From assembly GCA_052174135.1 (NCBI GenBank), contig JBQMRZ010000004.1, forward strand, positions 203,410-267,409: DNA of 64,000 nt, written 5' to 3'. Positions within the stretch are counted from its first letter, which is position 1. Every line of letters begins with the position of its first letter. The position numbers and the translations under genes are program-made. The notes beneath the pieces are model-generated. The model saw only the letters and a list, made by a program, of their open reading frames with translations, ran no database searches and was not told the origin of the DNA. This document shows, in pieces, positions 8,298 to 56,709 of the stretch. This DNA is from Arsenophonus sp. ET-KM2-MAG3. GTDB taxonomy: Bacteria; Pseudomonadota; Gammaproteobacteria; Enterobacterales; Enterobacteriaceae.

Positions 8298-9428
8298 TCA
8301 TAATAATATTTTTTTCATAATTTCATGATAAATAAGGTATAATTTATTAAGATCAATAATATTAACACATTCATTTGGTTTATGAATAGTTTCATTTAAA
8401 AGGCCTAATTCAATAATTTGTGCACCCATTTTAGCAATAAAACGACCATCAGATATTCCACCATCTGTTGATAATTGAGGTTGATAATAACAATATTTTT
8501 CTATAGCCTCACTGACAATATTAAATAATTTACCTTTTTTTGTTAAAAATGGATGACCAAATAATGACCATTTAATTTTATAATTAAATTGATATTTTTT
8601 TAATATTTTTTCAACTTTTTGGCGAATTTGTTGATCGGTAAGTACATTACTAAAACGAAAATTAAATTGTATAATTAATTCACTAGGAATAATATTATTA
8701 GTATTATTATCAGAATTAATGTTGAAAATTTGCATACTTGTTGGAGAAAAAGAATGATTACCAATATCCCATTTTTTATTAATCAGTTCATTTAAAAAAG
8801 GTAATGAATTATGTATCGGGTTATTAGCTAAATATGGATAAGCAATATGTCCCTGAACTCCGCAAATCACCACTTTAGCTGTTAATGAGCCTCGACGCCC
8901 ATTTTTAATAATATCACCAAGCTTAATTTGACTAGACGGTTCACCTATTATACAGTAATCAATTTGTTCATTGCGTGCTATTAATTTATCAACAACTTTT
9001 GCTGTTCCGTTAATAGCTTTAGCTTCTTCATCAGAGGTGATCAAAAAAGCTAATCGACCGGTATGGTTAGGAAAATTGCTAATAAATTTTTCAGCGGCTA
9101 TAATCATTGCAGCAAGAGAACCTTTCATATCAACAGCTCCTCGACCATAAAGAAGTCCGTCATTTAATATTGGAGTAAAAGGCGGGTAATGCCAATCTTG
9201 AACTGCTCCTGCCGGAACAACATCTGTGTGCCCAGCAAAGGCTAATGTTTTGCCTTGTTTTCCATGAAGTGCCCATAAATTTGTAGTATTGTTAAATGAC
9301 ATAACTTCAATTGAAAAACCAAGTTTTTTTAATTTATTAATTAAAATAACTTGACAACCATAATCATTAGGGCTAACAGAGGGCAATTGAATTAGTTTTT
9401 TCGTGAGTTTAATAATAGGACAAATCAT
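8298..9428 (-). CDS. dapE: succinyl-diaminopimelate desuccinylase
   Basis: The 376-aa ORF is collinear with E. coli DapE (LAFAGHTDVVP, GRGAVDMKGSLAAM, LITSDEE, GRRGSL, GGISDGRFIA). Confidence 0.95.
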   Translation of the reverse strand: MICPIIKLTKKLIQLPSVSPNDYGCQVILINKLKKLGFSIEVMSFNNTTNLWALHGKQGKTLAFAGHTDVVPAGAVQDWHYPPFTPILNDGLLYGRGAVDMKGSLAAMIIAAEKFISNFPNHTGRLAFLITSDEEAKAINGTAKVVDKLIARNEQIDYCIIGEPSSQIKLGDIIKNGRRGSLTAKVVICGVQGHIAYPYLANNPIHNSLPFLNELINKKWDIGNHSFSPTSMQIFNINSDNNTNNIIPSELIIQFNFRFSNVLTDQQIRQKVEKILKKYQFNYKIKWSLFGHPFLTKKGKLFNIVSEAIEKYCYYQPQLSTDGGISDGRFIAKMGAQIIELGLLNETIHKPNECVNIIDLNKLYLIYHEIMKKILL

Positions 9429-9721: not shown

Positions 9722-11898
9722 TTTAACTTTAATTTGTATTGTCTATTTTTAAATATGTTAAATTAATAAGTATTATATTTTTTTAAAATAAATTGGTTAA
9801 ATATTTTTTCAAATTTTTTATTTTTTAATAAAATACTAAATATTGTAGTATTATTTTATTTATAATAACTAGCTTTATATAAAAGATTTTTAGTAATTAT
9901 TTATGAATAAATTAATTTTATACATTACAATTAATTAAAGTTAACTGATGATTTTTTTAATAATTTTATATAATACAAATTACTTTATTTTTAATTTTAT
10001 AATCAAGATTTATTATTTTTATAAAAATATAGCATTTAAAATTTTATGGTTAATTTTTGAAAAATAGTTATTTATTTGTTCTTAATTTTAATTACAAAAA
10101 TATAACGAGAATTGATTGGTAAATTCAATTAACTAAAGAATAAAAAACTTAATAGATTTTTTGTTTTTTTTTAACTATTATTTAATTAATTTTAAAATTA
10201 AACACATAAATATTTATACATTTCTAAATTAATGATATTAATCTTCACATATAGATAATCTATTTAACAATAAACTCACGATATATAACCAAATTATCAA
10301 TTATTTATTTTATAAAAATACGAGTTATTCTAAGTTTTTTCGAAAAATTAGTTATTATTTGATATTAAGGATATTAGGTGGTATTTAAAAAATTTTTTAT
10401 AGTTAAATAAGGTATTTGTTTTTTTTAAAAAAAATTAAAACTGAATCAAACTATAATATATAGCTTATAAAATAAAAAAAACAAAAAAATAAAAAAAACA
10501 AAAAATATCATTATAATTTTAATTATTAAAGACCAATTACAGTTTATTTTTTTTTTGCTAATTTTATTAAAAATAAGACTAAAAATAAATTATTATAAAA
10601 ACATAAATTATGAATTATAAAATACCTTAATAAATAATATTTTTTTATTTAGAATTAAAACTCTAATATTTATTTTTTTCAAATTTATTGAATAATTGAT
10701 AGATAAAATAAAGTTCTTTTTTATGCTAGAATGATAATATCAATATAAAATTTATGATTTAAATAACATGAGAGAATTATTATTCTTAGATTGTATTAAC
10801 AATTTTTATAAGAATAAAACTATTTTGTTCTTTTTTTTTGATTTAATAATAAAACATAATTTGTTATAATCATTATTTAGTATAATAGTGTTCAATATTA
10901 TTAATATCTGAATTATCTAGTAAATCTTAGAAATATTAATGCTACATAAATAAATTTAATGAATTCATATTATTTACTTTCATAAAATATATTATCAATT
11001 ATTGATAATTCTTTATATTTTAGGTTAATGGTGTAATATATGAATTTTACTATATAACTAATTATAAGTGAAAAGTAGAATTGAAATATAGATACTTTAA
11101 AAAAAAATCCTTAGTCTCTTTTATTCTAAAAGAAACTTTATAAGAATATTGAGAATGATATAATAAATAATTAATATTTAGTACTAATTCACATAAAGCA
11201 TTTGATGAATAGTATTCGATAATTAATGAATTATATATTCTATATGTATTTAAAAAATACAAGATTTATTAATTGGATTAATTTATTAATTCTTTTAAAT
11301 AAACAAAAATGTGTTTTATAAAAAAATAGGTAATATTTTGATTTTTAAGTATTTTAATATAAATATATTCAATATTTTGTAAATTAATTCTATAATTATT
11401 TAATTGATATCTTTAGTTGAGATAAATAAAAATTAAAATTTTATTTTTTATCATGAAAATTTTATTTTCATGATAAAAATTTTTGACTAGTTTACATGTA
11501 GTAAAATACTCTAAATAATAATGATCATGATGTTGTAATTTTTTTTTTGAAAAAAAACTTGTTTTATTTTATTTTGATCAAATATATATTTGATATTCTG
11601 AGTAATTTAATTTTTTAATAAAAATATTATTAGCTAATATACCATAAAAAAGTAAATTATACTTAATTTTATAAAATATTATTTATAGTCTTAGTATCTA
11701 ATGAATTAATATCATAAAATTAAATATTTTGTCTATTATTATATTTTAATTTAATTAAATTAATTTGTTATTTTTTGTCATATATCTTTTTATTTAATTG
11801 ATTTTATAATTATATTTTAATCAAAAATTATTGATAATAAGATATAAATATATTTATATTTTATTTACAGTAAAGTGTTTATCAAAAAAAGTTATCTA

Positions 11899-12798
11899 TT
11901 AGCTAAATAAAGTAATTAATAATGGCGTTAATAAACTTAATACAAAACCATGTATAATAGCAGAAGGTATAATAGAAGCTCCTCCACTTTGTTGTAATAC
12001 AGGTAATGCAAAATCCATTGATGTTGAACCACAAATCCCCAATGCAGTAGATCGAAATTGATTAATAATAACAGGAATAAGCATGATAGCTAATAATTCA
12101 CGCATTAAGTCATTAAAGAAAGCAGTACTACCAATAACCGGTCCATAAACATCTGTGAGTACTATGCTAGTTAGAGAATACCAACCATAACCTGCTGCAA
12201 TTGATAACCCTATTTTTATGGGTAAATCTAATAAAAATGAAGCCAAAATACCACCAAGTAAGGCACTTATAGCAACAATTATTGCAATTATAGCTCCTCT
12301 AAAATTAATTAAAATTTGCTGAAGGTAGATTCCACTATTACGAAGATGACAACCAATTAATAATAATAAAAAAATAAGTATAATTTCAGAACTATTTCTT
12401 GCATAGGATAAAAATTGCCACTTTGTTAGTCCTAATAAGAAACCTAGCAATAACATACCACAAAGTGGTAGTAAACTTATAATCATTTTTAATCGAGATA
12501 ATGCTTTATTGGTTTTATATTTTGTGATTTTCCATGGAAAAAATTTATCTAATAACAATAAAGAAATAAGATTTGCAGTAAAAATGCAGAGAAAAAAAAC
12601 AATTGTATAAATAAAAATTGAAGTAAGATGAATGTTAATATTATCTAATAATGCCAATGTAATTCCCATTAAAAATAAAATTATGTAAACCATAATGCTT
12701 AACAAACAATCAACAACTATTAAAATTTTTTTATTTTTAAAGCAAAATAAATAACCTAATATTAACGGTAAAAGAATAATAAATAGTTTTGAATACAT
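11899..12798 (-). CDS. lysO: lysine exporter LysO (YbjE family inner-membrane protein)
   Basis: The 299-aa polytopic ORF has the same length as E. coli YbjE and is collinear with it (MYSKLFIILLPLILGYL.., GYGWYSLT, PVIGSTAFFNDLMRELLAIMLIP, STSMDFALPVLQ, IHGFVLSLL). Confidence 0.85.
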   Translation of the reverse strand: MYSKLFIILLPLILGYLFCFKNKKILIVVDCLLSIMVYIILFLMGITLALLDNINIHLTSIFIYTIVFFLCIFTANLISLLLLDKFFPWKITKYKTNKALSRLKMIISLLPLCGMLLLGFLLGLTKWQFLSYARNSSEIILIFLLLLIGCHLRNSGIYLQQILINFRGAIIAIIVAISALLGGILASFLLDLPIKIGLSIAAGYGWYSLTSIVLTDVYGPVIGSTAFFNDLMRELLAIMLIPVIINQFRSTALGICGSTSMDFALPVLQQSGGASIIPSAIIHGFVLSLLTPLLITLFS

Positions 12799-13854: not shown

Positions 13855-13897
13855 TTTTGTGCTATAGATATCTGTAACAGATATCTATAGCACAAAA
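13855..13897. repeat. Perfect 43-nt palindrome with 21-bp arms and a single central A
   Basis: The sequence is ttttgtgctatagatatctgt a acagatatctatagcacaaaa. All 21 pairs were checked base by base, and the arms contain 5 G:C pairs. T-rich sequence precedes it and an A-run follows it. It lies in the lysO-ybjG desert. Confidence 0.9.
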
Positions 13898-20779: not shown

Positions 20780-20824
20780 AAATTATTATTTTTATCTAAT
20801 ATGTATAGATAAAAATAATAATTT
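20780..20824. repeat. Perfect hairpin with a 19-bp stem and a 7-nt loop
   Basis: The sequence is aaattattatttttatcta atatgta tagataaaaataataattt. Arms are 20780-20798 and 20806-20824, checked base by base, with one C:G pair. Confidence 0.85.
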
Positions 20825-21390: not shown

Positions 21391-22095
21391 ATGTCAGTAA
21401 CTAAACTGGTTTTAATGAGACATGGAGAAAGTGAATGGAATAAAGAAAACCGATTTACTGGCTGGGCTGATATTAAGCTTTCTGAAAAAGGCCATGAAGA
21501 AGCAAAAGCCGCAGGCCAGTTATTAAAAAAAGGGGGATTTATTTTTGATTATGCTTATACATCTGTTTTAAAACGTGCTATTCACACATTATGGAATATT
21601 TTAGATCAAATAGATCAACAATGGTTACCTGTTGAAAAAAATTGGCGACTAAATGAACGTCATTATGGAGCTCTACAAGGTTTAAATAAAATGAAAGCTA
21701 TGATAAAATATGGTGATGAACAAGTTAAATTATGGCGTCGTGGTTTTAAAAATAAACCGCCAGAACTAACTAAAAATGATCTTCGTTACTGTTGTAACGA
21801 TCTTCGTTATACAAATTTAAACCAATCAGATCTTCCTGTTTCTGAGAGTCTCGCTACAACAATTGAACGTGTGATTCCTTATTGGAATAAAGTAATTAAA
21901 CAAAGAGTTGCTAAAGGTGAAAAAGTAATTATTATTGCTCATGGTAATTCATTGCGAGCATTGGTAAAATATTTGGATAAAATCAGCGAAGAGGAAATCT
22001 TTAAACTTAATATTCCAACTGCTGTTCCAATCATCTATGAATTTGATGAAAATATAAAACCTATTAATCACTATTATTTTAATAATAAAATTTGA
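21391..22095 (+). CDS. gpmA: 2,3-bisphosphoglycerate-dependent phosphoglycerate mutase
   Basis: The 234-aa ORF is collinear with E. coli GpmA ([43 protein letters not shown]), with an AGGA Shine-Dalgarno. It lacks about 16 C-terminal residues relative to the 250-aa E. coli enzyme. Confidence 0.95.
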
Positions 22096-22729
22096 ATAAA
22101 TTTAAAGTTATTACTTTAAATCCTAAAGTAAAATATTTAAGTTTATCTAAATAAAAAAAATCACTTTTATTTTTATCAATCAATTAATTAAACCTTAAAG
22201 ATATACTTAAAAAATATCTATTGTGTTAATATTTTATTATATGTTAATAGATTACTTATATTTATTTCTATTTTTTTAAAAATATTTTAAAGTTCTATCA
22301 AAGGTAATAATTATTGTTTGTAACATACTATTTTTCATTAAAAAAACATTTCAATTGCTTAACTAGATATTTTTATACTTCATATCAATTTATATGATAA
22401 AAATCAATCTTTTTACATAAACTTAATTTTTATAAATTTTATAAAAATTTCTATATTTTATTAATCATTAGATAAACTTTTATTATAATATAATATATGT
22501 TAATTTTATTTATTAATAGTATTTATAATTATCGAATTTCTTCATTTAGTAACTGATAAAATAGGTATTTTAGTTCTATTAATTATGTATTAATGTCTAC
22601 TTTATTTTTTTTTAAACAAATTTTAAATTTATTTTAAAAACAATATTAATTACAATTAATAGTAAACTCAAAAATAATAGCGTTATATATGTGTTAATAA
22701 TTTTAATAATTTAATAGGATTTTTAACAT

Positions 22730-23911
22730 ATGAAAAGATAATTTTGCAATAAAAATCCATTAGCGATTTAATTTAAATTTTAATTTTTATCTATAGTTAA
22801 TAATTATTATTATAATAAATTAAAAATAGAATAACAGTAATTAAGAATTAATTATTTTATAAATTAAAATTTAATATATTAATTCATGAAATATTTAAAT
22901 AATCAAAGTATAAAGTAGCTTTATGTGTTTTTAAAATTTTTTTTAATATTTAAAAAAAATAGAATATAAGAACTTTTTTATTTATTTAAAATTTAATCGC
23001 TTCATTTTTATGAATCATTTTTATTTAACATATAACTTTTATCTAGAGATTCTCTTAAAATAATAAATAAATTTTTTATTTTAAGAGAATTATAAAAATA
23101 TAAATAGCAATTAATGCACTAAAATATAAATTATTTTATTTAGTTAAATACTATAAAATTATTCATTAAAGTATAGAATAACGACGATTTTTTAATATAA
23201 TAATTAAATATCTTTAAATTATTATAACTATACCATTATAGTATTAATTATAAAATCATCATTTTTTATTCAAAGAAATAAAATGGATTTGTTTTTATCT
23301 TTATTTTCGAGACAAAATACTTTATTAAGTTTTAATTTAATAATAAAATTAAATAATAGCGATAAATAAAATTATCATTATTTCAGAAAACTTTATTTTA
23401 ATAATCTCATTAATACGCATAATTTAAGTATTTAATTGTAAAAAAAAAATAATAATATCAATTTTAGAATTTAAATATACTCTCTTTAAAATCATTATTA
23501 ATAATTATTATATTTAATTTATTTTCTTATTTTTTATTTTTTTTTATTTAATAAATTTAAGTTATTTCATTACTATCTAAAAAAAACAATATATGTGAAT
23601 TCAGTAAAATCCATCTTTTCTTAAAGTTTATGCAATAGAAAATAATTTCTCTTCACATATTTGTTCTGATAAAAATCAGAGTTGAACCTTATCCAACTCT
23701 ACCAACAAAATAAATGTTAATATAAATGATAGCTATCCAATTTAGATGTTAATTACAAAATTTAGAAAATAACCTTTCTATATAAATTAATCATTAAAAA
23801 TGCTTTTGTATTCAATTTTACAATTGATATTATTTTTTGAATGTGAGATTTTAATTGTTTTAAAAAAAATCTAGTATATGTATACTAATTAATTCAGTTA
23901 TTTAAATAAAT
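22730..23911 (+). pseudogene. iscS: Eroded fossil of cysteine desulfurase IscS
   Basis: Three anchors lie in one frame. 23281-23316 reads KWICFYLYFRDK against KGIGA-LYVRRK (res 211-221). 23650-23670 reads SSHICSD against SSGSACTS (Cys328 loop). 23758-23781 reads KFRK*PFY against RFSLGRFT (res 354-361). A candidate start is ATG 22730 (MK.. with AGGA 11 nt upstream). The frame is full of stops, and the ends are approximate. Confidence 0.5.
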
Positions 23912-23927
23912 CTATTATTCTCATTTT

Positions 23928-24369
23928 ATGATAAAGAGTTTTTAATGATAAAAATAATTAATTTGATATAATTATATTTTTAATTAAAAGATAAAAAAAT
24001 CATTTTTCTTTTTAGGAACTTTTATACAAAATTCATTGCGATCTAAATAATTATTTAATTATTTCTTAATTAAAATATTATACTTTTTTTAAAATATTTA
24101 ATTTATTCAGAGTAACTTATAACTAACTATATCATTAAATTTTATATTATTAATTCAATTAATAATATAAAATAATTTGTTTTCATAAAATCAATTTTTT
24201 TATTTACTGTGCTTCTATTAATTAGAAACTATTATGAATAATAACTATATACTTAAAGTATAATATTAGATTAGAACAATATTTTATTTTTATACATTAA
24301 AACAAGAATTAAGATCCCTGATCTTTCCGTAACTTTATTTACTACTTATATACTTATAGATTAAAATAA
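23928..24369 (+). pseudogene. iscU: Eroded fossil of the Fe-S scaffold protein IscU
   Basis: An ATG at 23928 sits where iscU should follow iscS. The anchors are S4 (23937), G30 (gga at 24015, exactly the predicted position), C37-x-D39 (tgc gat at 24037-24042), Y61-C63-x-S65-I67 (tac tgt gct tct att at 24205-24219), I104-H105 (ata cat, then taa in place of Cys106, at 24292-24300), D112 (24313) and Y121 (24340). The stop at 24367-24369 is one codon from the expected position. There are multiple internal stops and an in-frame expansion of about 96 nt between C37 and C63. Confidence 0.55.
24139..24173. repeat. Perfect 35-nt palindrome with 17-bp arms around a central C
   Basis: The sequence is attttatattattaatt c aattaataatataaaat, checked base by base. 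It lies inside the length-expanded part of the iscU fossil. Confidence 0.85.
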
Positions 24370-27300
24370 TTTAAAAATTATGATTTAATCTTTTTAATTA
24401 AAATATTTTAATTTAAATAAACTAATTTCTTAAATTTTTTATATTTATTAAAATATTTATAATATTACCACTTATCGTTTATTAAGATCGGAAAGTTTAT
24501 TTATTCTATATTAACAATAACTACAATATTTCATGCTAATTGGTCAATATTATTGCTGTAATTTTATTTAATTTTACTGCACTATTTATTAGTAGTACCG
24601 TATTCATCTAAACATAAATAAAATTACTGTACTTTATATACATTGAAATAATAAATTTTATCTTAAAATTCTGATAATACAAACAAATTACTTTATTTTA
24701 TATATTTACTTTTTCCATATCATTATTTTAATTGCCATCAATATTTTATTTTTTATTAGTTGTTATATATATTAATTTACAAGTTATTTTTCTATAATAC
24801 TTTTTTCTACTTTATAATTAATAAAAAAATTAAAATATTTTTTCTATAATTATATTAAAAATATTCTTGTTATCTATCAATATATACTTATCTTGAAATA
24901 TTAATTAAAATCTTATTATTTTAATTAATTAAAGTCACTGAATTTAATGAAATTAATAACTATAATTTCGTATAAATAATTATACGAAATGATTATTTTA
25001 GTTGATAATTATTTATATTTTATATAGCATAATTTATTTTATTTCTTAATAATTAATTAACTCTTATAAGTATAAGGGTATCTTTTAGTATTTAATTATA
25101 TTATCTTATTTTTTATTAATATTCTATCTATTTAAAAAAAATAAATTTCAAATTAACAAAAAATTATCTAACTTAAAATTATTAATTTATATAAATACAT
25201 CTTTTAAAATTATTTTAAATTTAAATTAAATTTTAATCATATGTTAACAATTCATGTTGATAACATTACTTGATTAATATAATTAAATATAAAAAATTAT
25301 ATTTTAATCAACTAAATAATAATTATAAATTTCTATAATCTATAGAAATACAATCAATATTGTTAACCCACTAAAACTTACATATTTATCTTATGTAAAA
25401 CATTAATTTAATTAAACTTATCGTCTAATAAACCATTTATTAACCTTAATGATTTATTATTTATAATTAATAGTTATATTAGTATAACTTCATCTAATTT
25501 ATCTATTGTTCTATTTTTATTTGATATACTGTTTAATATGATCTTTACAATAAATCGCAAAATTGATTAATAAAATCATTATTTTAATATAAATGATTTA
25601 AATTTCATTATATGAGTAATTATTATTTTATATTTTTTAATAAAATATATTTTTACAACATTATTGTATTAAAATGGAATAACCTGAATGTTGTTATAAA
25701 CAATAAATTAAAATATTAAATAAATTCATGCATATTAAATGTTAATACAGTTTTTTTTAAAATATATAAATATTTATAGATTTATTAAAAATAACAAGAG
25801 AATAATTACTAATGTTTTAATTTTTTATAATTAAAGTAATAATATTAATTCATCGTTTTATAAAAATAAAAGATAAAAATATTCATATTTCTTTAAAAAT
25901 AGTAATTATAATAAAAAAATTAATTTTTAATATTTTTTATTATAACTTTTTCTAAAAATTCTATATATTAGAATAATTTTTATATTATAAAAAATCTAAT
26001 TTTTAGAATACCATAAAATCTGTATAATACAAATATTACTATTTAAAATATATTGTAAATAATAAATTCAATAATTGAATTACCTTAAATTATATTAATA
26101 CCATGTTTCTAACGAGCATTCAAATATATAATATAGAAAATTATAATACAAATAAAAAATAAATATATTACTTTATTATAATAAATTATTTCATTTAATT
26201 ATTGATGTATATAATCATATTTATATTTATATTTATACTATAATTACTTAATATTAACTATTTTAATTTATTTAAATAATAAATTAAAAACTATATTAGT
26301 ATATAATACTATTTATGATATAAAATTTCTACTAAAAATATTAATAGTTAAAATAACATTTTCCATTTATAGATATCAAAATGTCAATGATTTTAATTAA
26401 AAACACTAACTATAATTTATATTTTTTTTATATTAACTTATTACCCCCACAAAATGATCTATAAAATAATTAAGTGTGAGAAAAAATTTTATAAAATAAT
26501 TAAAAATTATATATCTTTTATACTTTATATTTCATTTATTGAACAATAAAGTTCTTTTTACATATATTTATAATATTTGTTATATATTTTATATTTTTTT
26601 ATTTTTATTTAGTTATAAACACTTTTTCTAACAGAATCCCTCTAATTTTAACTTAAAATAAACCTAGTGGATATTATTAGGTATAAAATCCATAGTAACA
26701 TACAGTTAAAAGTTCGAAATATATTATTAATATTTCAATTAGTAATAGTATAAAAAAAATAAAAATTATCATATAGTACATCAATTCAATTAATTAAATT
26801 TACTTTATTTTTATAAAATCATAATTTCATTCAAATAAATAAAGTTATCATAATTAATATCGAATAAACATTATTAAAAATTAATATAGTTTTAAATACT
26901 TATTATGCTTATTTTTAATTGTTATAATTTAATTAGATAATTTAAATATGAGAACTAATGTAATTAATTTTGTATTTTTTAAACAATAAAAAATACAATA
27001 CTAATTTTTATCAGTTATAATTTATTATTATATTAAAATTATCAGCTTTAAACAATTAAAGATTAAATTTTCACTAAATGTTTGATATCCATTTCAAGTA
27101 TTTTCTGCAATTCTCATAGAGATTTTTCACTATTGATAACTGATTTCTATTAAACCAATATTTTATATAATTAAAAAAATCACTTAAATTTTATAAATAA
27201 AAAAAATTACAAAAACTATAAAAAATTAAACTAGTTTAAAATAAAAAATAAGCTATATAATGATATTAATAAATTATCATAATACTGATTGTATAATTAT

Positions 27301-27700
27301 AATTATTAATTTTCATGAATAATAATGAAAATTTACTTATAGAAATTTCTAGATATACTATTTTCATATTAGAGACAATTTATTCTTATATTTAATTGAA
27401 AAAATAAATTGTTAATTTAAACTAAATCAATAACCATAAAAATATAGAGGTGATGCATTATAAACGCTTTAATATTAATTGAAAAAAATTTTTTATATAT
27501 TGATGTATTAAGAATCTATAAATTTAAATTAATTTATAATAATTAATGAGCTCAAAATAAAAAAAATTCCAGAAATTATTTTATTAATGAAATTTAATAA
27601 ACACAAATAATAATAAATTAAATTATTACTTATATAAAAATTTAAAATTATTTTAGTTATATTACTTGTTTATAGTGGAATATATTAATTTACAATAACT
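24370..27700 (+). pseudogene. Unresolved remainder of the isc operon fossil (iscA-hscB-hscA-fdx-iscX expected by synteny)
   Basis: The stretch has the expected length and position between the iscU fossil and pepB. Weak anchors only. ATG 24380 lies 11 nt after the iscU fossil stop, with 'cgt tta' (RL) plus Cys codons that could derive from IscA. 25353 reads INIVNPLKL against IDLGTTNSL of HscA. ATG 27453 with a GAGG Shine-Dalgarno reads MHYKRFNIN.., sharing M1, K4, Y16, L22 and M32 with IscX. Individual gene borders are not resolved. Confidence 0.3.
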
Positions 27701-27764
27701 TCTATTACTAATATCTGATATTTATCAATTATTTGATAAAAAATACGACAAACTAAGGCAAAAA

Positions 27765-29060
27765 ATGGAAAAACAAATTATGCAAATTTTGTTATCTTAT
27801 GAACCAGCAGCGCTTTGTTGGGGGAAAAATGCATTAATTAGTTATAGTGAAAAAGGAATTGTTATTCACGTGAACTCACAGGAAAAACTATATGAAATCC
27901 AAAGTGCAGGTCGTAAACTGGATAATCAAGGTATCCATCATGTCATATTAGCAGATAATAATTGGAATTTAGAAGAAAGTTGGGCATTTTGGCAAGGATT
28001 CAGATCGCCTAAGGGACCCCGCTCTATTGAATGGCCAAATTTATCTGAAAATGAAAAAAAGGAATTACAGTATCGCATACAAATTATTGATTGGGTACGC
28101 GATATTATTAATAAACCACCTGAAGAATTATCCCCTGAACAATTAGCACAGCACAGCGTTAATTTATTATATGAGACAATAAAAGATAATATTAATTATC
28201 GTATCATTAAGGGTGAAGAATTAGCAAAACAAAAGTATAATGGAATTTATATAATAGGTCGCGGTTCAACTCGCCCTCCTGCATTATTAGTTTTAGATTA
28301 TAATCCAGCTCGAAATTTAAAAGAACCAGTATTTGCTTGTTTAGTAGGAAAAGGTGTTACGTTCGATTCTGGCGGTTATAGTATAAAACCATCTTCATCA
28401 ATGAATTCAATGAAAGCAGATATGGGAGGAGCCGCTATACTAACTGGAGCATTAGCATTAGCAATAAGTCGAGGTTTAAAACAACGAGTAAAACTTTTTC
28501 TCTGTATTGCCGATAATATGATAAGCGGTAATGCATTTAAATTAGGTGATATTATTCACTACCGTAATGGTAAATCTGTTGAAATTATGAATACAGATGC
28601 AGAAGGAAGACTTATTTTAGCGGATGGATTAATCGATGCTTCTAAAGAAAATCCAGAATTAATTATTGATGCTGCAACACTAACAGGTGCAGCTAAAATA
28701 GCAGTAGGTAATGATTATCATTCTGTATTAAGTTTTGATGACAAATTAGTAGCTAAATTGATGTTTTCATCAGAAATAGAAAATGAACTTTTTTGGCGTT
28801 TACCTTTAGCAGAATTTCATCGTCGTCAATTACCTTCTATGTTTGCAGATATAAATAATATTTCGTTAAATTCTCATACTGCTGGTGCTAGTATAGCTGC
28901 TGCTTTTTTATCATATTTTGTTGAAAATTATTATAATGGATGGCTTCATATCGATTGCTCAGCTATTTATCATAAATCTTCTATGGATTTATGGGCAGAA
29001 GGTGCAACCGGTATTGGCGTCAGAACTATTGCTAATTTATTGCTGAAAAAATCAAAGTAA
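27765..29060 (+). CDS. pepB: aminopeptidase B (M17 family)
   Basis: The 431-aa ORF is collinear with E. coli PepB ([57 protein letters not shown]). Confidence 0.95.
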
Positions 29061-39180: not shown

Positions 39181-40089
39181 TTAAATCCAGTCTTTTTCAA
39201 TTAAAAATTGACTATAAAGTCTTTCTTCATCTGAATTAGATTCAGGATGATAGCTATATTCCCAGCGTACTAGTGGTGGTAGAGACATTAAAATTGATTC
39301 TATTCTACCATCAGTCTCTAGACCAAATAAAGTTCCTCGATCGTATATTAAATTAAATTCTGCATAACGTCCTCGGCGATATAATTGAAATTCTCGTTCA
39401 CGTTTGCCCCAAGTTGTCCCTTTTCTTTTTTCAACGATTGGTAAATATGCATTAAGAAAACCATTACCTACGTCTTTTGTAAATTGAAAGCAATTAGCAA
39501 AATCTGGTTGGTTTAAATTATCAAAAAAAAGACCGCCGATTCCACGAGGCTCATTTCGATGTTTGATGTAAAAATAACGATCGCACCATTTTTTATAATT
39601 TGGATAAATTTCTTTTCCATAAGGTAAACATAAAGATCGCGCAGTTTCATGCCAGTGAATGATATCCGTTTCAAATGCATAATATGGAGTCAAATCAAAT
39701 CCACCGCCAAACCACCATATTGTCGGACTATCTCTTTTTTCTGCAATGAAAAAACGAACATTTACATGAGCTGTTGGAATATAAGGATTAAGTGGATGAG
39801 TAACCAAAGAAACACCCATTGCTTGATAACGATATTCTATTAATAATGGACGATTTTCTGTAGCAGTAGCGGGTAATTTATCACCACTTACATGTGAAAA
39901 ATTAACACCAGTTTGCTCAAAAATTTTTCCATGTTTTAATACACGACTACGACCTCCTCCTTTTTGTTTATGTTGCCAGTTATGTTCTATAAATTTTTCT
40001 TTATTATCAATATATTCAAGTTGTTGAGAGAGTTTATCTTGCAAGCTGAGAAAAAATGTTTTTACTGTATTAATGTTAGGTATATTCAT
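39181..40089 (-). CDS. hemF: oxygen-dependent coproporphyrinogen-III oxidase
   Basis: The 302-aa ORF is collinear with E. coli HemF ([54 protein letters not shown]). Confidence 0.95.
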
Positions 40090-40092
40090 GAT

Positions 40093-41006
40093 ATTAATTT
40101 TAATTATTACTAGATTAACATTTAATTATACACTTAATATTATTTGAGTTCATTTTATTATTGAGTAAGTTTATTAACATGAGAATAATAATATCAAAAT
40201 ATTAAATATCATAATTTACTGATATTGATAATAATAAAATACATACTTTAATTAAGTAAATTTATTATTTTTATAAAATTTTTTATAATTATAAACATAT
40301 AGTTGATGATCTAATTATTAGTTAGTAAAATTAACTATAATCAATCAATTTAGATTAATTATAAATATTTATATCTATTTTTACATTCATATTAATTTAA
40401 TATAGTTCTGATATTATTTAATGATATTATTATTTTTTTTTGATAAATTTTAATTATTTGAAAAAAAAATGGAAAATAATGTTAAAAAATAAAATTTTTA
40501 ATTTAATTTGAAAACAAATAGTTTAATTATAGACATAATAAATTATTTAATTTTTTAATCATTTATTCAACATAAGTAAAATTTTAAGACTACTATTAAC
40601 ATGTTATTTATTTTATTTTATTTTATTATCATTATTCTTATTTAAATAAAAAAATGAGAATTATTTGATTTATCTATAGAATATAAAAAAAAATAAAAAA
40701 TATTTCAATAAAGTTATTTGATTTTAAATAAACATTTATATTATTAAAGATTTATAAATTAATAAAAAATAAATAGATATTTTCTGATAGTAATATTAAA
40801 TTTGAGATATTACGGATTTGATTTTTTAGTAACTAAAATACGAAATAAAATTATCTGTATAATAATTAGAAAATATGATAATTATCAAAGCTATATTTAT
40901 TATTTACTTATTTAATTTTATAAAATTTAATTTTATGATAAAAATATAAATATACTAATGAGTTACTAAAAAATCAATTTGATAAAAAAAGTTTTTAATA
41001 AACCAT
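40093..41006 (-). pseudogene. amiA: Eroded fossil of N-acetylmuramoyl-L-alanine amidase AmiA, the upstream operon partner of hemF
   Basis: Two minus-strand anchors share a frame. 40818-40807 aat ccg taa tat reads NP*Y against DPGH (res 62-65). 40602-40579 atg tta ata gta gtc tta aaa ttt reads MLIVVLKF against MSIHADGF (res 130-137). ATG 41006 (MVY*KLF against MSTFKPL) lies 5 nt from the predicted start. The frame is stop-riddled. Confidence 0.4.
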
Positions 41007-41272
41007 ATGCGCTTTAAGTATATAAAAAGAATGATGTCGTTATTTATGTACGTAAAAGGTTCATGAAGAGTTCTAGTAAAAAAATATTAATTTATATTAA
41101 ATAATTAGTTGATAATTTAGATTTTTATACACTGATTAATTTAATTAATTGAATGAATTAATACTTTTTATATAAAATTTTATTAATTTATTTTTTATTT
41201 CAGTTTTATTTAAAATTATAAAATATTTAAAAATTTTTTAATAAAATTTTATAGTTAATAAAAAATATATCA

Positions 41273-41338
41273 AGCATTAATAACCTAACATCCGATCAAA
41301 AAATAAATTTTTTGATCGGATGTTAGGTTATTAATGCT
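41273..41338. repeat. Perfect 66-nt inverted repeat with 32-bp arms and a 2-nt spacer
   Basis: The sequence is agcattaataacctaacatccgatcaaaaaat aa attttttgatcggatgttaggttattaatgct. All 32 pairs were checked base by base, and the arms contain 9 G:C pairs. It is by far the longest perfect hairpin in the window. Confidence 0.95.
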
Positions 41339-42082: not shown

Positions 42083-42125
42083 TTGCTAAAATTATTAATA
42101 CTTTTAGTATTAATAATTTTAGCAA
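42083..42125. repeat. Perfect hairpin with a 20-bp stem and a 3-nt loop
   Basis: The sequence is ttgctaaaattattaatact ttt agtattaataattttagcaa, checked base by base. It lies 0.75 kb from the 32-bp hairpin, in the same desert. Confidence 0.9.
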
Positions 42126-42405: not shown

Positions 42406-42910
42406 TATTTATAATCTATATGATAATAATCTCATTTATAATGTAAAAATTAATCAGTTTAGCTAATTTTTATTTTATTTATCATAAATGATTATAGATA
42501 TTAATATTAATTTTTTATTTTTCTTATAATAAGAATAAATAATATTTTAAATATTAAATCATTTTTTATAATTTTTTTTACCTTCTTTTCTTAAATACTA
42601 GAATTCTCCATTATTTAATTTAACAATATTAGTATCAAAATAAATAAATAATTTAATAACACTATATAGTTTAATAGAAAATTTTTAGTTTATTTTTAAA
42701 ATTTTATTAATAATATTCAACCTGAAAATAATTTCATTACTAGTAAGATTAATAAAAACATAATCATTAATAATTTTTAGTAAAATAACAGCTAAAACAT
42801 ATTTTATGTTAATAAATTTATCCAAAATCTTTGTAATAATATTAATATTGGATATCATCTTAATATACTTAAAGTTAATAATTCCGATTTATTAAGTAAG
42901 GGGGGTTCAT
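42406..42910 (-). pseudogene. crr: Eroded fossil of PTS glucose-specific EIIA component (Crr)
   Basis: It lies immediately downstream of ptsI on the same strand, with an ATG at 42910. From gga at 42885-42883 (G19) one frame runs to the end with these collinear matches. GIIN..NI..F matches G19, I21, N33, I34 and F42. 42729-42715 reads IFRLN against IFETN (both catalytic His residues lost). 42639-42601 reads FDTNIVKLNNGEF against FGIDTVELKGEGF. 42585-42580 reads EG against E110 G111. 42468-42415 reads KLAKLINFYIINEIIII* against ELIKLSGSVTVGETPVIR. There are several in-frame stops. Total length is about 505 nt, against a 510-nt intact gene. Confidence 0.6.
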
Positions 42911-45202: not shown

Positions 45203-46171
45203 CAATCATAAACCTTATATATATCAATACTAAAATTGGACATGATAATTTTCTTAATTTATATTTTATATATAAATTTTCATTGTTTTTTATTCTTCTT
45301 ATTAATTTAAATTTTCTAAATAATTAATCGCTTAGATAATAAACTTATTTTTAAAAAAATATATTAATCTTAACATACACTAAACTTTGATTTAATCAGA
45401 TTAAAATACTTATTAATTTACGTTACTAGCAAAAAAAATAAAGTTATATTTAATAATGATTTTATTAGGAAAATGTAAAAATAACTAAAATATTATTTTG
45501 TTATATTAATATTACTGTTAATTTTATCTCTATATTAATTATAATGTCTAACTATATACAAGAGAAAATATTTTCTTCATACATTTTGTTTTTTTAAAAA
45601 AATTATATAATAAATTAACTAGTTATTTTTATTTTATTAATTTAACAAAATTATACTCTTTATTTTCACTGGAAATATTTTGTCTTGTTTGAACATTCCG
45701 ATCAACTTTGTAATATTTTAAGTGGTAATTAAAGAAAAAATACAGTAATATACTCTGATTACTAGTATAAAAAATAAAGTAATTTAATCCTATTATTACT
45801 GTGAAACAGTTATGAATAAAATCCTTGTGTAACGATACTTTATTTTATTTTAGTTAATCATTAAATTTTCTTAACTATATTTAATAGTCAGTACTATTTA
45901 TTTTTACTAACGTAAAATAATGATATGAAAGAGATAGTTAACTTAAAAAGAATTTTTAATAAGATTTATTAAATTATAAAATAAGCCTATTTATCTTATA
46001 GTTTTAATATTACAGCAATTAAATTTTTAACGATATTATCGAATATTTATTTAGACTCTAAAGTAATAATTTGCCATTTAAATCTAATAATTTTAATTAT
46101 TTTAATAAAGTTAGGGGATAATAGGGGGGGTCTTATTTTTTTTTTGCTTACTTTTAAGAAAATTTGATCAT
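45203..46171 (-). pseudogene. cysK: Eroded fossil of cysteine synthase A
   Basis: cysK is the upstream neighbour of ptsH in E. coli. An ATG at 46171 (minus strand) opens a frame that stays in register with CysK, with no net indel, for at least 286 codons. At identical codon numbers M1, K3, P16, L20, L29, K42 (the PLP lysine), I45, I50, L65, S70, L88, I98, R101, K102, V176, V185, A281 (gcg) and E286 are the same. More than 20 in-frame stops fall within the first 106 codons. Confidence 0.55.
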
Positions 46172-49100
46172 AATTTACATAAATAAATATTTTTTTTATG
46201 ATAATTAATATTATAAGTTATCTTATATACTCAAATAGTATTTTATTGCCTTAAACACTTCTTCTTTATATATTCCACTAAAATATTATAGCTATTAATT
46301 TTTATAAAAATTTTAATTATATTTTTAAAAGAAAAGCTTTGTTTGTTATAAATTTTGAATCTGTAAAAATGCACTATATAAATAATTATATAAGAATAAT
46401 CATCAATAATAATCATTATTTAATTGTTGTATAATTAAAAGTATAAATGCATATCAGTAATGATATCTCAGGCTTACACATTTAAAGATATTAATAACAT
46501 TGATTTTTTGTTAATAATCTTACAAAGTAATTATTTAAAATAATAATTACTTTGTTTAATTAAGAAGTGTAAGAATTAATAAATACATCATATATCAACA
46601 TAATAACAATTTGATTTTTTATATTTTTAATAAACGGGGGATTATTTATCATAAATAAATTGATATTATTAATTATATCTAGAAAAGCTTTTAGAAGCTA
46701 TTATTATATAGTGAAATCCTAAGAGGATTGTTATAATAAAATGTGACCTATAATTAAGTATCATTAATTTTATAATATCAATTATTATTTTATAATTTTA
46801 TTGAATATATACTCTATAAAAAGATTATTAATACAAATTCTTCAATAAATATACAAAATATACAATGAAAAAATTTTAAACGATTAATTTTAAACTTCTT
46901 GATAAAAGCACTAGAACGCTAAATTAAGCTTATATTTTTAGAAAAATGAAAATTTTTAATAAAAAACTATTTCAGTATATAAAGCTAATAATATTATTTA
47001 AAAAAAATTATTCATAATAAATATGCTTATTAATAAAGTTAATAAGAATTTTTTAATAAATTATTTTTTTTAAATAACTCACTTATACACTAAAATAGAT
47101 TATAGGGTAACTTAAAATACTTAAATAAATAATTTTGATAGAAAATTTCTAAAATTTATAATTTTAATTTGTAAAGAATTATCTGATTAATCATTATTTT
47201 TTATATAGTACTTTTATGCAAACTATATTAATGTAATGAAAAAAAAGAAGTTAATGAGGGATTATTAATATAAAAGTTAAATAAATTATTTAATATTCTT
47301 TTCTAATATTTCTTTTAGTTGCTTTTATATTAAAAATTAAAACTTTTAAAATAAATAAAATATTATCTAAATCAATAACGGATATTAATTTGAATAAAAG
47401 TATGAGCGATAACTACGCTTAGGAAATTAAAAAAAGAATATTAAAAATATTGATTGTAGTAAATATATAAAACAAAAGTAATTAGAAATATCATATGGTA
47501 AATAATAAATAAATAAATAATATGATAAATTTCATTAATTTGATAAATATCAAATATTTTTGTAAACTGTAATGTTTATATTTTATGATAAAAATCAAAA
47601 AATTATTATTAATAATAAACATTATTTATAAAAAATAAAATATAGAATATTAATAATGTTAATAAAAATTAAAAATAATCTTTTAATTAAAATACAAAAT
47701 TTTTTAAAAAAAAAGATAAATAATCTAGTTAAATTATAATAAAAATTAAATTATATATTATAAAATAATTATAATATTTATTTTTTTTGGTTTTATAGAT
47801 TCAATTAATTTGAAATAAATTTATTTTGTTGTTTTTAATTTATGCTAATATTTAGCGGTATTTAATAAATTAGTGGTATATCTAGCTTGGTGTCTATCGA
47901 TTATAGACTATAAAATAATTATACTTAAAATATTAAAAAATATTATTAATAAGTAGGATTATCAATTATATACTTCATTAAAGTATTAAGGTTTTAATAA
48001 AATTGATTGTTAAATCCTCCTTTTTTAATAGAAACAACATTTCTACATAAATTACAATAATCGCTAAATTTGATAGTTAATATTAAAAAATAAACTTTAT
48101 AATTTATTTAATTAATTGTAATTTTAATAAAAAAATTACTAACTGTTATTATTAATATTAATTTGTAAATTCAAATATAACATAAGTTATTTTAGTATTA
48201 AACATTAAAAATAGTGCTAACAAATACACATTATAATAAAATTATTAAAACTTTTATTATCAAAGTTTATTAGTAACGTTAATACTAAATAATCTTCTTT
48301 TTTATTTGTTATTTTAGTAATATGCTAATTTTGATAAATCGATATTATATATGTTTATTATTATAATATTTTAATAGAATTTTAAAATAAACATCAAGTA
48401 TATTTAGTGTATATAAAATATTATTAGCATAAAATGTAAATATTAATAGTCGATAATATAAATTATTACTTATCAATTTATTTTAAAAATCTTCCTAAAG
48501 GTATTAAATTTTGTTCTTATTGTAACTTTAAAATTCTGAACAATAAAATGATCAATTATATTCTGTTCAAATAAGATCTAACTAATTGTATTTTAAAATT
48601 AATAAAATTTTTTTTAACTATCTTGTTATTAAATTTTATTATCATTAAATCTTAAAACATTAAATATATTAAAATATCTTAAGCTAAAACTTTAAAATAA
48701 TTTAATATTTGCAGATTAAATTAGTGATACATAAGTTTTATATCTCATAAAAACAAATAAGTGTTATTACTTAGATGATTAAAAGTATTATATAGATAAT
48801 AGAATATTTTTTAATGAAGCGCTAGAAAATTTTAATAATACCTAAACTTCTCTTTTTTATGTATTTCCGATTAATTTATTATTTTATACATACAGATTAC
48901 TAATTTTTTATTAAAATATAAAAATTATTAATTATAATATTGTAAAATACAAGATAATGCATAAATCTTGTCTTTTTATTACTTATTAATACATTAATCA
49001 ATGTATTAATAAGTAGATTTTTATAGCCTAAAAATAAATAACTTGATATTCAATGTTCCTCATAATAAGTACTTATTAGATATCATTTTACGTATATGAA

Positions 49101-50859
49101 AATATCAAAATCTAGATATATTAAAATAACAAACAATTAAAGGATAAATATAACTACTTTATTTTATATTTGGAAAGCTCTATTATTAATTAATTTTGTT
49201 CTTTAATAAAAAAATCTTTATTAAAAAGATATCAAATACTTATATGTAAAAAAAGAAATCTTTTAAGTATTTATACTATTTTAATACCATTACAAGTAAT
49301 CAAAAAAAAAATAAAAATTTGTTGTTTAACTAAAAAGTTAATTGAGGATTCAATCTCATATTAATTATAAGTATTAAATTAATATATACTAAAAAGTCAA
49401 TAACTACCCTCTTAGATAAATATATAAATACTTATAAGATGAAAATCAGCTAGTTATTTATTTTTTATTTTACTTTTAGTAAAATAAAAAATAATTTTAT
49501 TCAAGATATGAAAACTGATGAAATAATAAGCGTTTGATTTATTAAAGATGCCTCTTTAATATAAAATTAAATCTGTTAATTTCTATTAAAATAGACAATA
49601 AACTATTCTAATTTAAATTTTCTCTTTTTTTAAGAAACATGTATTATAAATAGATATTAAGTTTTACTTATCAGTTATTTATTAAATAAATGATAATATT
49701 GAATTTTACTTACTTTTATTTTAAGAGAATAGATATCACAGGCAATAAAACACTACATTAAAATTAATTGTTATTTAATAAGAAATAATAAAAATATTTT
49801 TTTAAATTAATGTAATTTTAAAAAATTCAACTTAATGTTTTATTGAAAAATTTAATATATTTTATTAATTCCTATATAATCATTAATTAATTAATAACAT
49901 TATACAGCATTATCAATTATTATGAAATTTAACTATCAGAAGTACTTTTATAAAAATACTTAGATTTATAGCCACTAATTTTCAATATAGGAGAAATAAA
50001 TTATTTTTTGTAAAAAGATAGTGTCGATTTATTACAAATTTTTAACACAATAACTCTTCTTAAAATATTAGCCACTGATATTGGATTAAATTCCTATAAT
50101 GTCATTTATTACTTGTAATAATTTAAAAATTAATTAACTTTTTGATTTTTTTTAGTTATGAACTTTAATGATATTAAAGATATATATATTAAAATAAATA
50201 ATAATTTTATTGAAATATTTAAAGGCATTAATTTAAATAAAAAAGCTTTATTTATAATAATAAAGTATAATGGTTTAAATACTCTATAATTCAAACCCAT
50301 GCTGAATAACGTTATTTTAACATTAGTAAATTAAATAAATTAGATAACGTAATATCATTTATACTTATACTTATACTTATTCAAGTATATTATCATTAAT
50401 AATTAAATTATTAACTATCTGTAATTATTAACATATTATTAGATTTAGAGTAAATAAAAAAATAACATATATAATAAAAAATTATAATTTTCGTATTATA
50501 TAATAAAGTGATAAAATAAAGAATAGAATAATTGCTTACATTAATTATATTCTAAGATGTTTTTATAATTTAATATAAAATTAATAATATTAAAGTATAT
50601 ATTTATTACTAATGAGCATTAAATTTACAAAATTTATATTTTATTAAAATCAAGCTTTATAAAAATTTATAATCTAATAAAATTTAAGCGATATTTGATG
50701 AGTTTTAATTCATATATCTAAAATATCATTTACCATCAGATTATTTTTTGTGTAATTAAAAATTAAATTATTGTAGTCACTCAGAGTCCTAATGTTAAAT
50801 CTTAATTAGATATATAATTATACTGATAATTTAATTATAAATAATAATGAGGATAAATA

Positions 50860-56438: not shown

Positions 56439-56490
56439 CCATTAATATGGTGTCTCAATAAGACACCATATTAATGGTAATAGTTTTTTT
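56439..56490 (+). terminator. Rho-independent terminator of cmk-rpsA-ihfB
   Basis: The hairpin ccattaatatggtgtct caata agacaccatattaatgg has a perfect 17-bp stem and a 5-nt loop. It is followed by taatagTTTTTTT and begins 29 nt after the ihfB stop. Confidence 0.8.
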
Positions 56491-56664: not shown

Positions 56665-56709
56665 ATTAATATTAAATTTATTACTAATAGTAATAAATTT
56701 AATATTAAT
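56665..56709. repeat. Perfect 45-nt palindrome with 22-bp arms around a central A
   Basis: The sequence is attaatattaaatttattacta a tagtaataaatttaatattaat, checked base by base. It lies 175 nt downstream of the ihfB terminator, at the start of the ihfB-msbA desert. Confidence 0.9.

Follow-up and report, generated by a model that had tools for sequence, protein, structure and literature searches.

How does a perfect 66-nt inverted repeat come to stand in the non-coding DNA of a reduced bacterial genome, and does it serve any function there? The question was raised by positions 41273-41338 of the window, by which we mean the whole 64-kb stretch of DNA that was analysed. The genome is that of a reduced, AT-rich Arsenophonus endosymbiont, an insect symbiont whose HemF is 91% identical to that of Arsenophonus sp. 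ET-YP4-MAG3 and approximately 80% identical to those of A. nasoniae and Ca. Phlomobacter. The window has a G+C content of 21% and is approximately 45% coding, and its gene deserts have a G+C content of approximately 13%. An earlier inspection of this DNA (the original prediction) had singled out the repeat as a non-genic palindrome with perfect 32-bp arms, far beyond chance expectation and the strongest non-genic signal in the window.

The description of the repeat proved to be accurate. The arms are complementary at 32 of 32 pairs, nine of them G:C, around a 2-nt centre, and the palindrome has a G+C content of 28% compared to 13% in its surroundings. Given the base composition of the surrounding spacer, a palindrome with 32-bp arms is expected approximately 4e-8 times per window, and arms of at least 18 nt occurred in 0 of 60 composition-preserving shuffles of the window, which bears out the claim that chance is an insufficient explanation. 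Folded as RNA, the palindrome region gives -47.2 kcal/mol, compared to -9.4 +/- 2.2 kcal/mol in shuffled sequences (z = -17.5), and the opposite strand forms one uninterrupted hairpin as well (-46.7 kcal/mol, compared to approximately -10 kcal/mol when shuffled; z = -12.3). The repeat is the longest perfect palindrome of the window, but it is not alone, being one of 23 with arms of at least 12 nt.

It was reasonable to consider, as the original prediction had done, that such a structure might have arisen in sequencing or assembly, from a collapsed junction, for example, or from a fold-back read that is chimeric. Short-k assemblies do break at the palindrome, and the orientation of its centre is not the same in all assemblies. 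However, the full palindrome, with identical arms and the same flanks, is found in 3 of 3 strain assemblies from different samples: the strain of the window (W), strain A (GCA_052174155.1; loci L001 and L014) and strain B (GCA_052174175.1; locus L015). The divergence is approximately 0.5% of sites between W and the other two, and 0.24% between A and B; proteins near-identical to those of the window carry the names ET-LJ4-MAG3 and ET-DL9-MAG3. W is base-identical to the Logan contigs of SRR34985939, and strain B is identical to those of SRR34985941. In both runs the Logan k=31 contigs reach 41302 from the hemF side and 41309 from the ptsI side and then stop, having covered exactly 30 nt (k-1) of either arm; this is where a de Bruijn graph with k=31 must break at a genuine 32-nt inverted repeat. 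Shorter neighbouring palindromes are recovered base-for-base within independent Logan contigs, and the sequence on either side of the palindrome is collinear with that of the sister genome and of the outgroups described below. The palindrome is genuine, and on this evidence an artefact is scarcely credible.

The genomic setting had been described as a possible rearrangement junction, on the grounds that the repeat seemed to lie between fossils of amiA and crr. The order of genes is hisS-yfgM-bamB-der on the plus strand, followed by hemF (minus strand, 39181-40089), a 2882-nt spacer, and ptsI and ptsH, both on the minus strand. The palindrome lies upstream of hemF at a distance of 1184 nt, and 1634 nt from ptsI, past the ptsI stop and beyond the crr fossil. 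In A. nasoniae the genes ptsI-crr-cysM-DUF1131(yfeY)-ypeA-hemF, in which ypeA encodes a GNAT acetyltransferase, are contained within 3.7 kb, and the locus in the window is collinear with the order ptsH-ptsI-crr-cysM-yfeY-ypeA-hemF of free-living Arsenophonus. The predicted crr fossil was readily recovered with the A. nasoniae protein (Table 1). The short anchor from the ypeA-yfeY spacer also matches A. nasoniae (L009) and an Arsenophonus contig (L010), in agreement with the multiple alignment, and the probable ypeA remnant is collinear with this anchor, both showing the same offset of 780 nt with respect to A. nasoniae. The 2.9-kb hemF-ptsI spacer thus consists of the decayed, collinear remains of crr, cysM, yfeY and ypeA, and the site of the palindrome corresponds to the former intergenic spacer between ypeA and yfeY, itself decayed.

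Table 1. Features of the hemF-ptsI spacer and perfect palindromes of the window (window coordinates)
Feature	Position	Strand	Evidence or remarks
Probable ypeA (GNAT acetyltransferase) remnant	40874-40912	+	Weak tblastn match, E = 0.09; recurs at the homologous place in the sister
ypeA-yfeY (DUF1131) spacer anchor	41165-41195	.	blastn-short, 29/31 to Phlomobacter (L008), E = 2e-8
Left arm, AGCATTAATAACCTAACATCCGATCAAAAAAT	41273-41304	.	Derived inverted copy; exact reverse complement of 41307-41338
Central dinucleotide, aa	41305-41306	.	Spacer between the arms; flipped between strains
Right arm, ATTTTTTGATCGGATGTTAGGTTATTAATGCT	41307-41338	.	Ancestral arm, template; aligns with the sister (L005) and three outgroups
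Perfect palindrome, 20-nt arms, 3-nt loop, same spacer	42083-42125	.	Within a 66-nt segment missing in the sister
crr pseudogene remnant	42565-42852	-	tblastn with A. nasoniae Crr, 36% over 98 aa, E = 1.3e-12
Perfect palindrome, 22-nt arms, non-coding	56665-56709	.	Palindrome census
Perfect palindrome, 21-nt arms, non-coding	13855-13897	.	Identity to sister: left arm 13/21, right arm 9/21 with gaps
Perfect palindrome, 19-nt arms	20780-20824	.	Identity to sister: right arm 14/19; left arm 3/19, in a 20-nt gap
Perfect palindrome, 17-nt arms, shared with the sister (older)	24139-24173	.	Arms 15/17 and 16/17 identical to sister
Further perfect palindromes	167-203; 1035-1066		Palindrome census examples

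The amiA fossil fared differently. A tblastn search of the window spacer with Klebsiella AmiA gave a best E of 7, the same search of the sister spacer and of the A. nasoniae ypeA-hemF gap gave nothing, and neither did a Pfam search of the three minus-strand frames of 40090-41272. No amiA is called upstream of hemF in A. nasoniae or in the whole interval of the Logan Arsenophonus contig, and it is likewise absent from the fetched part of the Phlomobacter interval (DUF1131-ypeA-hemF). Given that the locus is collinear with that of free-living Arsenophonus, A. nasoniae included, the palindrome does not lie at a rearrangement junction. Elsewhere in the window, a 299-aa open reading frame at 11899-12798 has no NCBIfam match at E <= 1e-20, and its sister orthologue carries the Pfam domain PF03956 (Lys_export).

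A comparison of orthologous loci, which the original prediction had proposed as a check, indicated which of the two arms is old. The sister symbiont was GCA_052174195.1 (L005), and the outgroups were A. nasoniae (L009), Phlomobacter (L008) and Arsenophonus (L010). The sister locus was reached via GpmA; the SdaC homologues listed included no sister orthologue of approximately 90% identity, and a HemF search of genome contigs for other Arsenophonus symbionts returned only distant Enterobacterales and other gammaproteobacteria, among them the source of the Klebsiella AmiA. The sister has the same synteny, its spacer is 80% identical to that of the window, and the flanks of the palindrome, at approximately 80%, are as similar as the rest of the spacer. 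At the site of the palindrome, however, the sister has a single arm homologue, AATATTATTTATCTAATATTTTATTAAA, and is 36 nt shorter. In the five-way alignment, in which both flanks are aligned, neither the sister nor any of the 3 outgroups has the 36-nt segment, which comprises the centre and the second arm; the gap corresponds approximately to window positions 41275-41310, its boundaries being ambiguous by a few nucleotides, and this single contiguous gap is sufficient to account for all local differences from the sister.

The two arms differ accordingly in their identity to the sister, which is 18/32 for the right arm and 2/32 for the left arm, the latter falling in the gap. The right arm also aligns with the ypeA-yfeY spacer of the three outgroups, which share only approximately 50% identity with it. 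Its differences from the sister are mostly C-to-T decay in the sister, and the loss there of eight of the nine right-arm G/C sites is expected, because over the spacer as a whole the sister retains no more than 73 of 299 window G/C sites. Since the sister and all three outgroups lack the 36-nt segment, the left arm is derived, an inverted copy of the ancestral right arm. It formed before the split of strains W, A and B and after the split from the sister, from which non-coding DNA is 20% diverged, and the perfection of the arms bounds the change since formation to less than approximately 4.7% per site. One of the options put forward originally, that the repeat is very young, fits these data. 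At the homologous spot (L005 9075-9100) the sister has a perfect 11-bp palindrome of its own, TATTTTATTAA-ac-TTAATAAAATA, the right arm of which differs from both the window and the outgroups, and the site may be a recurrent hotspot of template switching in both lineages.

The opposite polarity was also considered, in which the palindrome is ancestral, the sister deleted one arm, and the window lineage kept the arms perfect by continual arm-to-arm homogenisation. Palindromes are known hotspots of deletion, homogenisation of the arms of inverted repeats has been documented (PMC5941160; PMC8604942), and an alternative alignment with three gaps relates the sister's 11-bp palindrome to the inner stem, as its decayed homologue. 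The outgroups argue against that alignment, and since the 36 nt are missing from all three of them as well, independent and identical deletions would be needed; the one-gap alignment is the more parsimonious, with equal or better identity, and without homogenisation the probability that the arms would still be perfect is approximately 0.002 over approximately 10% change per site. We consider an ancestral palindrome very unlikely, and still more improbable that the palindrome was inserted as a mobile or repeated palindromic element. Like REP/BIME sequences, Rickettsia palindromic elements (RPEs) and MITEs, the repeat is short, intergenic and palindromic, and its G+C content stands out from that of its surroundings. 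Unlike them it is single-copy, without family members, and one of its arms is native, being homologous to unique ancestral sequence. No further copy of an arm was found in the window with up to 3 mismatches allowed, or in the window and 17 fetched loci with up to 7, and an exact scan of 185,579 GTDB species-representative genomes for the 23-nt core of the arm gave 0 matches; the diverged copies that would mark an ordinary repeated element, for which the original prediction had suggested a search, were thus not found in any of these. The flanks, TATATCA and ATTTTAT, contain no direct repeat that could represent a target-site duplication.

The remaining alternative is that the hairpin is functional and maintained by selection, whether as a bidirectional terminator, a protein-binding dyad, or a site of replication or recombination, all of which had been suggested; a candidate role for a terminator would be to insulate hemF from ptsHI read-through. 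As in rho-independent terminators, a stem with G:C pairs is followed by T-rich sequence, in this case on both strands, and a simple terminator scan flags both. The stems of intrinsic terminators, however, are roughly 5-14 bp in length, and a 32-bp stem with a loop of 2-4 nt is far beyond such dimensions; the scan flags the inner 20 pairs of the stem, and T-runs are ubiquitous at 87% A+T. Unlike a terminator, moreover, the palindrome lies more than 1 kb from the flanking genes amid pseudogene debris and not at the 3' end of any transcription unit, arose by insertion, and is not conserved in orthologous loci, the sister retaining the same genes without the second arm. An ancestral terminator might have served as a seed, and the ypeA-yfeY spacers of A. 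nasoniae and Phlomobacter, inspected by eye, gave no convincing hairpin.

That the arms are identical in three strains might be taken as a sign of selection, but only 0.3-0.6 differences are expected in the 64 arm sites among W, A and B, and therefore the identity carries no weight. The marked excess of perfect over imperfect palindromes, discussed below, is also in favour of function, whereas the presence of many similar palindromes scattered through the gene deserts is not. An Rfam scan of the whole window at the gathering score gave 0 matches, an ARAGORN scan of the window for tRNA and tmRNA gave none, and a promoter scan found 56 promoter-like sites compared to 49 expected, which is uninformative at this composition. 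With regard to replication, the cumulative GC skew has its minimum near 26-28 kb (window 22000-28000), not at the palindrome, and rises afterwards; this minimum could represent a replication-related strand switch or simply gene orientation. Far from genes, absent from the sister and one of many, the palindrome gives no support to the functional suggestions, and we regard them as unlikely. A different palindrome, at 56439-56477, has a 17-bp stem with 6 G:C pairs and follows ihfB at a distance of 29 nt; in contrast to the rest, it has the position that a genuine intrinsic terminator would have.

In our judgement the palindrome is probably a recent, lineage-specific inverted duplication produced by template switching in junk DNA, and not a working signal; most likely it is functionless, and its perfection most likely reflects its youth. 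In the ancestor from which strains W, A and B descend, the nascent strand would have just copied the sequence now at 41307-41338 when it switched template, either folding back on itself or jumping to the opposite strand, would then have copied approximately 32 nt backwards, and would have returned to the original template, during replication or repair. A single event of this kind would yield both the 36-nt insertion and a perfect hairpin with 32-bp arms, in what would have been neutrally decaying DNA left over from the ypeA-yfeY spacer, in the interval from hemF to ptsI. A possible seed (ATCAA..TTGAT) and a possible return microhomology (CT/GCT) can be discerned at the switch points, the boundaries of which are ambiguous by a few nucleotides, and the proposed event does not account in detail for the additional A/T bases of the centre (AAAT-nn-ATTT). 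Fold-back repair of a break would give a product identical to that of a template switch in replication.

Quasipalindrome-templated mutations were reportedly described by Ripley in 1982. In E. coli, work from the Lovett laboratory found that such mutations "universally perfect the palindromic sequence" (PMC6357072), template-switch mutations have been described by Loytynoja & Goldman (2017; PMC5453318), and the creation of a perfect hairpin in one event by Monttinen & Loytynoja (2022; PMC8794818). As in these systems, a one-step reverse-complement copy of adjacent sequence accounts for a perfect hairpin here, the event shows up, in comparison with close relatives, as an indel or a cluster of mutations, and it may have nucleated at a short pre-existing inverted repeat, possibly the ATCAA..TTGAT pair. 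In contrast to the published cases, the tract is long (approximately 32-36 nt) and resulted in a net insertion, the DNA is apparently functionless endosymbiont sequence and not an RNA gene or a reporter, and the local density of similar products is very high. A literature search on palindromes in Arsenophonus returned nothing relevant.

The strains provide a further observation on the hairpin itself. Within the 66 nt they differ only in the central dinucleotide: W has AA there and both A (L014) and B (L015) have TT, so that the spacer is exactly inverted, and the arms show 0 differences. The pattern, in which A and B agree and both differ from W, fits the relationships of the strains, and the flip is the only clean inversion among the multi-nucleotide substitutions between them. 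The flip was seen in assemblies, and given that the Logan contigs end before the centre it could be a choice made by the assembler. If real, a later template switch across the hairpin may have re-copied the arms and so inverted the centre, and the suggestion in the original prediction of templated copying within the hairpin is consistent with the flip.

In AT-rich organelle spacers, hairpin-loop 'flip-flop' inversions are known in which a small loop flips between close relatives, and the palindrome resembles these in its small loop, perfect inverted repeats and AT-rich non-coding setting, the difference being that it resides in a bacterial endosymbiont chromosome. Intermolecular template switching has been documented to invert spacers and to homogenise arms, and in yeast inversions of 2-5-nt spacers with perfect arms have been described (Abraham & Hazkani-Covo 2021; PMC8604942); in proteobacteria, inverted repeats have been proposed to undergo repeated homogenisation of their arms (Lavi et al. 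2018; PMC5941160). Like the yeast inversions, the palindrome combines identical arms with a 2-nt spacer that is the exact reverse complement (AA vs TT), here as read from assemblies, and unlike the published cases its arms are three times longer.

Is this palindrome an isolated accident? A census of perfect palindromes with loops of at most 8 nt indicated that it is not. The 23 with arms of at least 12 nt compare with 2.4-2.8 expected; with arms of at least 16 nt there are 13 (0-0.07 expected), and with arms of at least 20 nt there are 4 (0 expected). The sister loci have the same excess, with 4 palindromes with arms of at least 16 nt in 21 kb, while the loci of free-living relatives contain none with arms of at least 14 nt. 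Although 45% of the window is coding, 15 of its 16 palindromes with arms of at least 14 nt lie wholly in non-coding DNA, most of them at a distance of hundreds to thousands of nucleotides from any gene; palindromes with such arms have a density of approximately one per 2.2 kb of non-coding DNA. The 66-nt palindrome is thus most likely the largest product of a process that scatters perfect, short-looped palindromes in non-coding DNA.

Comparison with the sister symbiont indicates that this population turns over. The positions of the palindromes mostly differ between the two, and for several palindromes one arm is conserved across species and the other coincides with a cluster of differences or an indel, as in the sister palindromes at 9866-9906 (cross-species arm identities of 19/20 and 12/20) and 8828-8869 (19/20 and 15/20). 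The palindrome at 24139-24173, in a segment that is 75% identical to the sister overall, is still perfect in the window. Between strains, the palindrome at 42083, which is reproduced in an independent Logan contig (L004), is one pair longer in W than in A and B, and that at 49458 shows slippage of a T in strain B; therefore palindromes here both grow and decay. The latter is one of two perfect palindromes (48980-49015 and 49458-49494) in a segment of approximately 3.7 kb, 46356-50028, that is non-coding and is missing from the sister (L005), whose flanking blocks directly adjoin each other. In the sister, Logan k=31 contigs (L006 and L007) end at zero-loop palindromes (L005 8302-8333 and 9198-9223).

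Perfect palindromes outnumber near-perfect ones by 16 to 2; with arms of at least 18 nt the ratio of perfect to one-mismatch palindromes is 6 to 1, which would suggest maintenance but is not significant (approximately p = 0.06, binomial estimate). The dominance of perfect palindromes is the single observation not obviously predicted by plain birth and decay; it is compatible with rapid turnover or with repeated homogenisation of arms, and the 16:2 ratio, together with the still-perfect palindrome at 24139, hints at active maintenance or selection as opposed to plain birth and decay. It is possible, although we hold this tentatively and with some doubt, that the lineage has an unusually active template-switch regime, in which palindromes in pseudogene-derived DNA are continuously created, re-perfected and flipped, and the 16:2 ratio would then reflect homogenisation and not youth alone. 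In that case gene conversion within hairpins would be a major force of mutation in this decaying genome, and the 66-nt palindrome the most extreme of its present products. Loss of nucleases is a possible cause of such a regime: RecBCD, ExoI, ExoVII and SbcCD normally abort template-switch events or destroy hairpins, and these could be the ones lost.

By itself the palindrome would matter little, as a by-product of mutation and not a signal. It is nonetheless useful as a clean case from nature, with outgroups to give the polarity, in which a long perfect hairpin was apparently made in one step from non-hairpin DNA; this process has been put forward as a source of new RNA stems and dyad binding sites. 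The wider excess of palindromes, with its turnover between sisters and one flipped centre, may be the more interesting lead: if confirmed genome-wide, it would provide a natural system for measuring template-switch rates and could connect these rates with the repair genes that are lost as genomes shrink. As a practical matter, such palindromes fragment k=31 assemblies at predictable positions.

Other clustered differences between the strains were examined as candidate template-switch events and rejected, as they proved to be homopolymer or microsatellite length changes or scattered substitutions. Length changes in microsatellites and homopolymers were seen at 50381, 40628, 47517-47520 and 46130-46145; the repeat types that change in length include an ATAAGT hexamer, an AATAA pentamer, and A-, T- and C-runs. 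These changes point to frequent replication slippage in the non-coding DNA.
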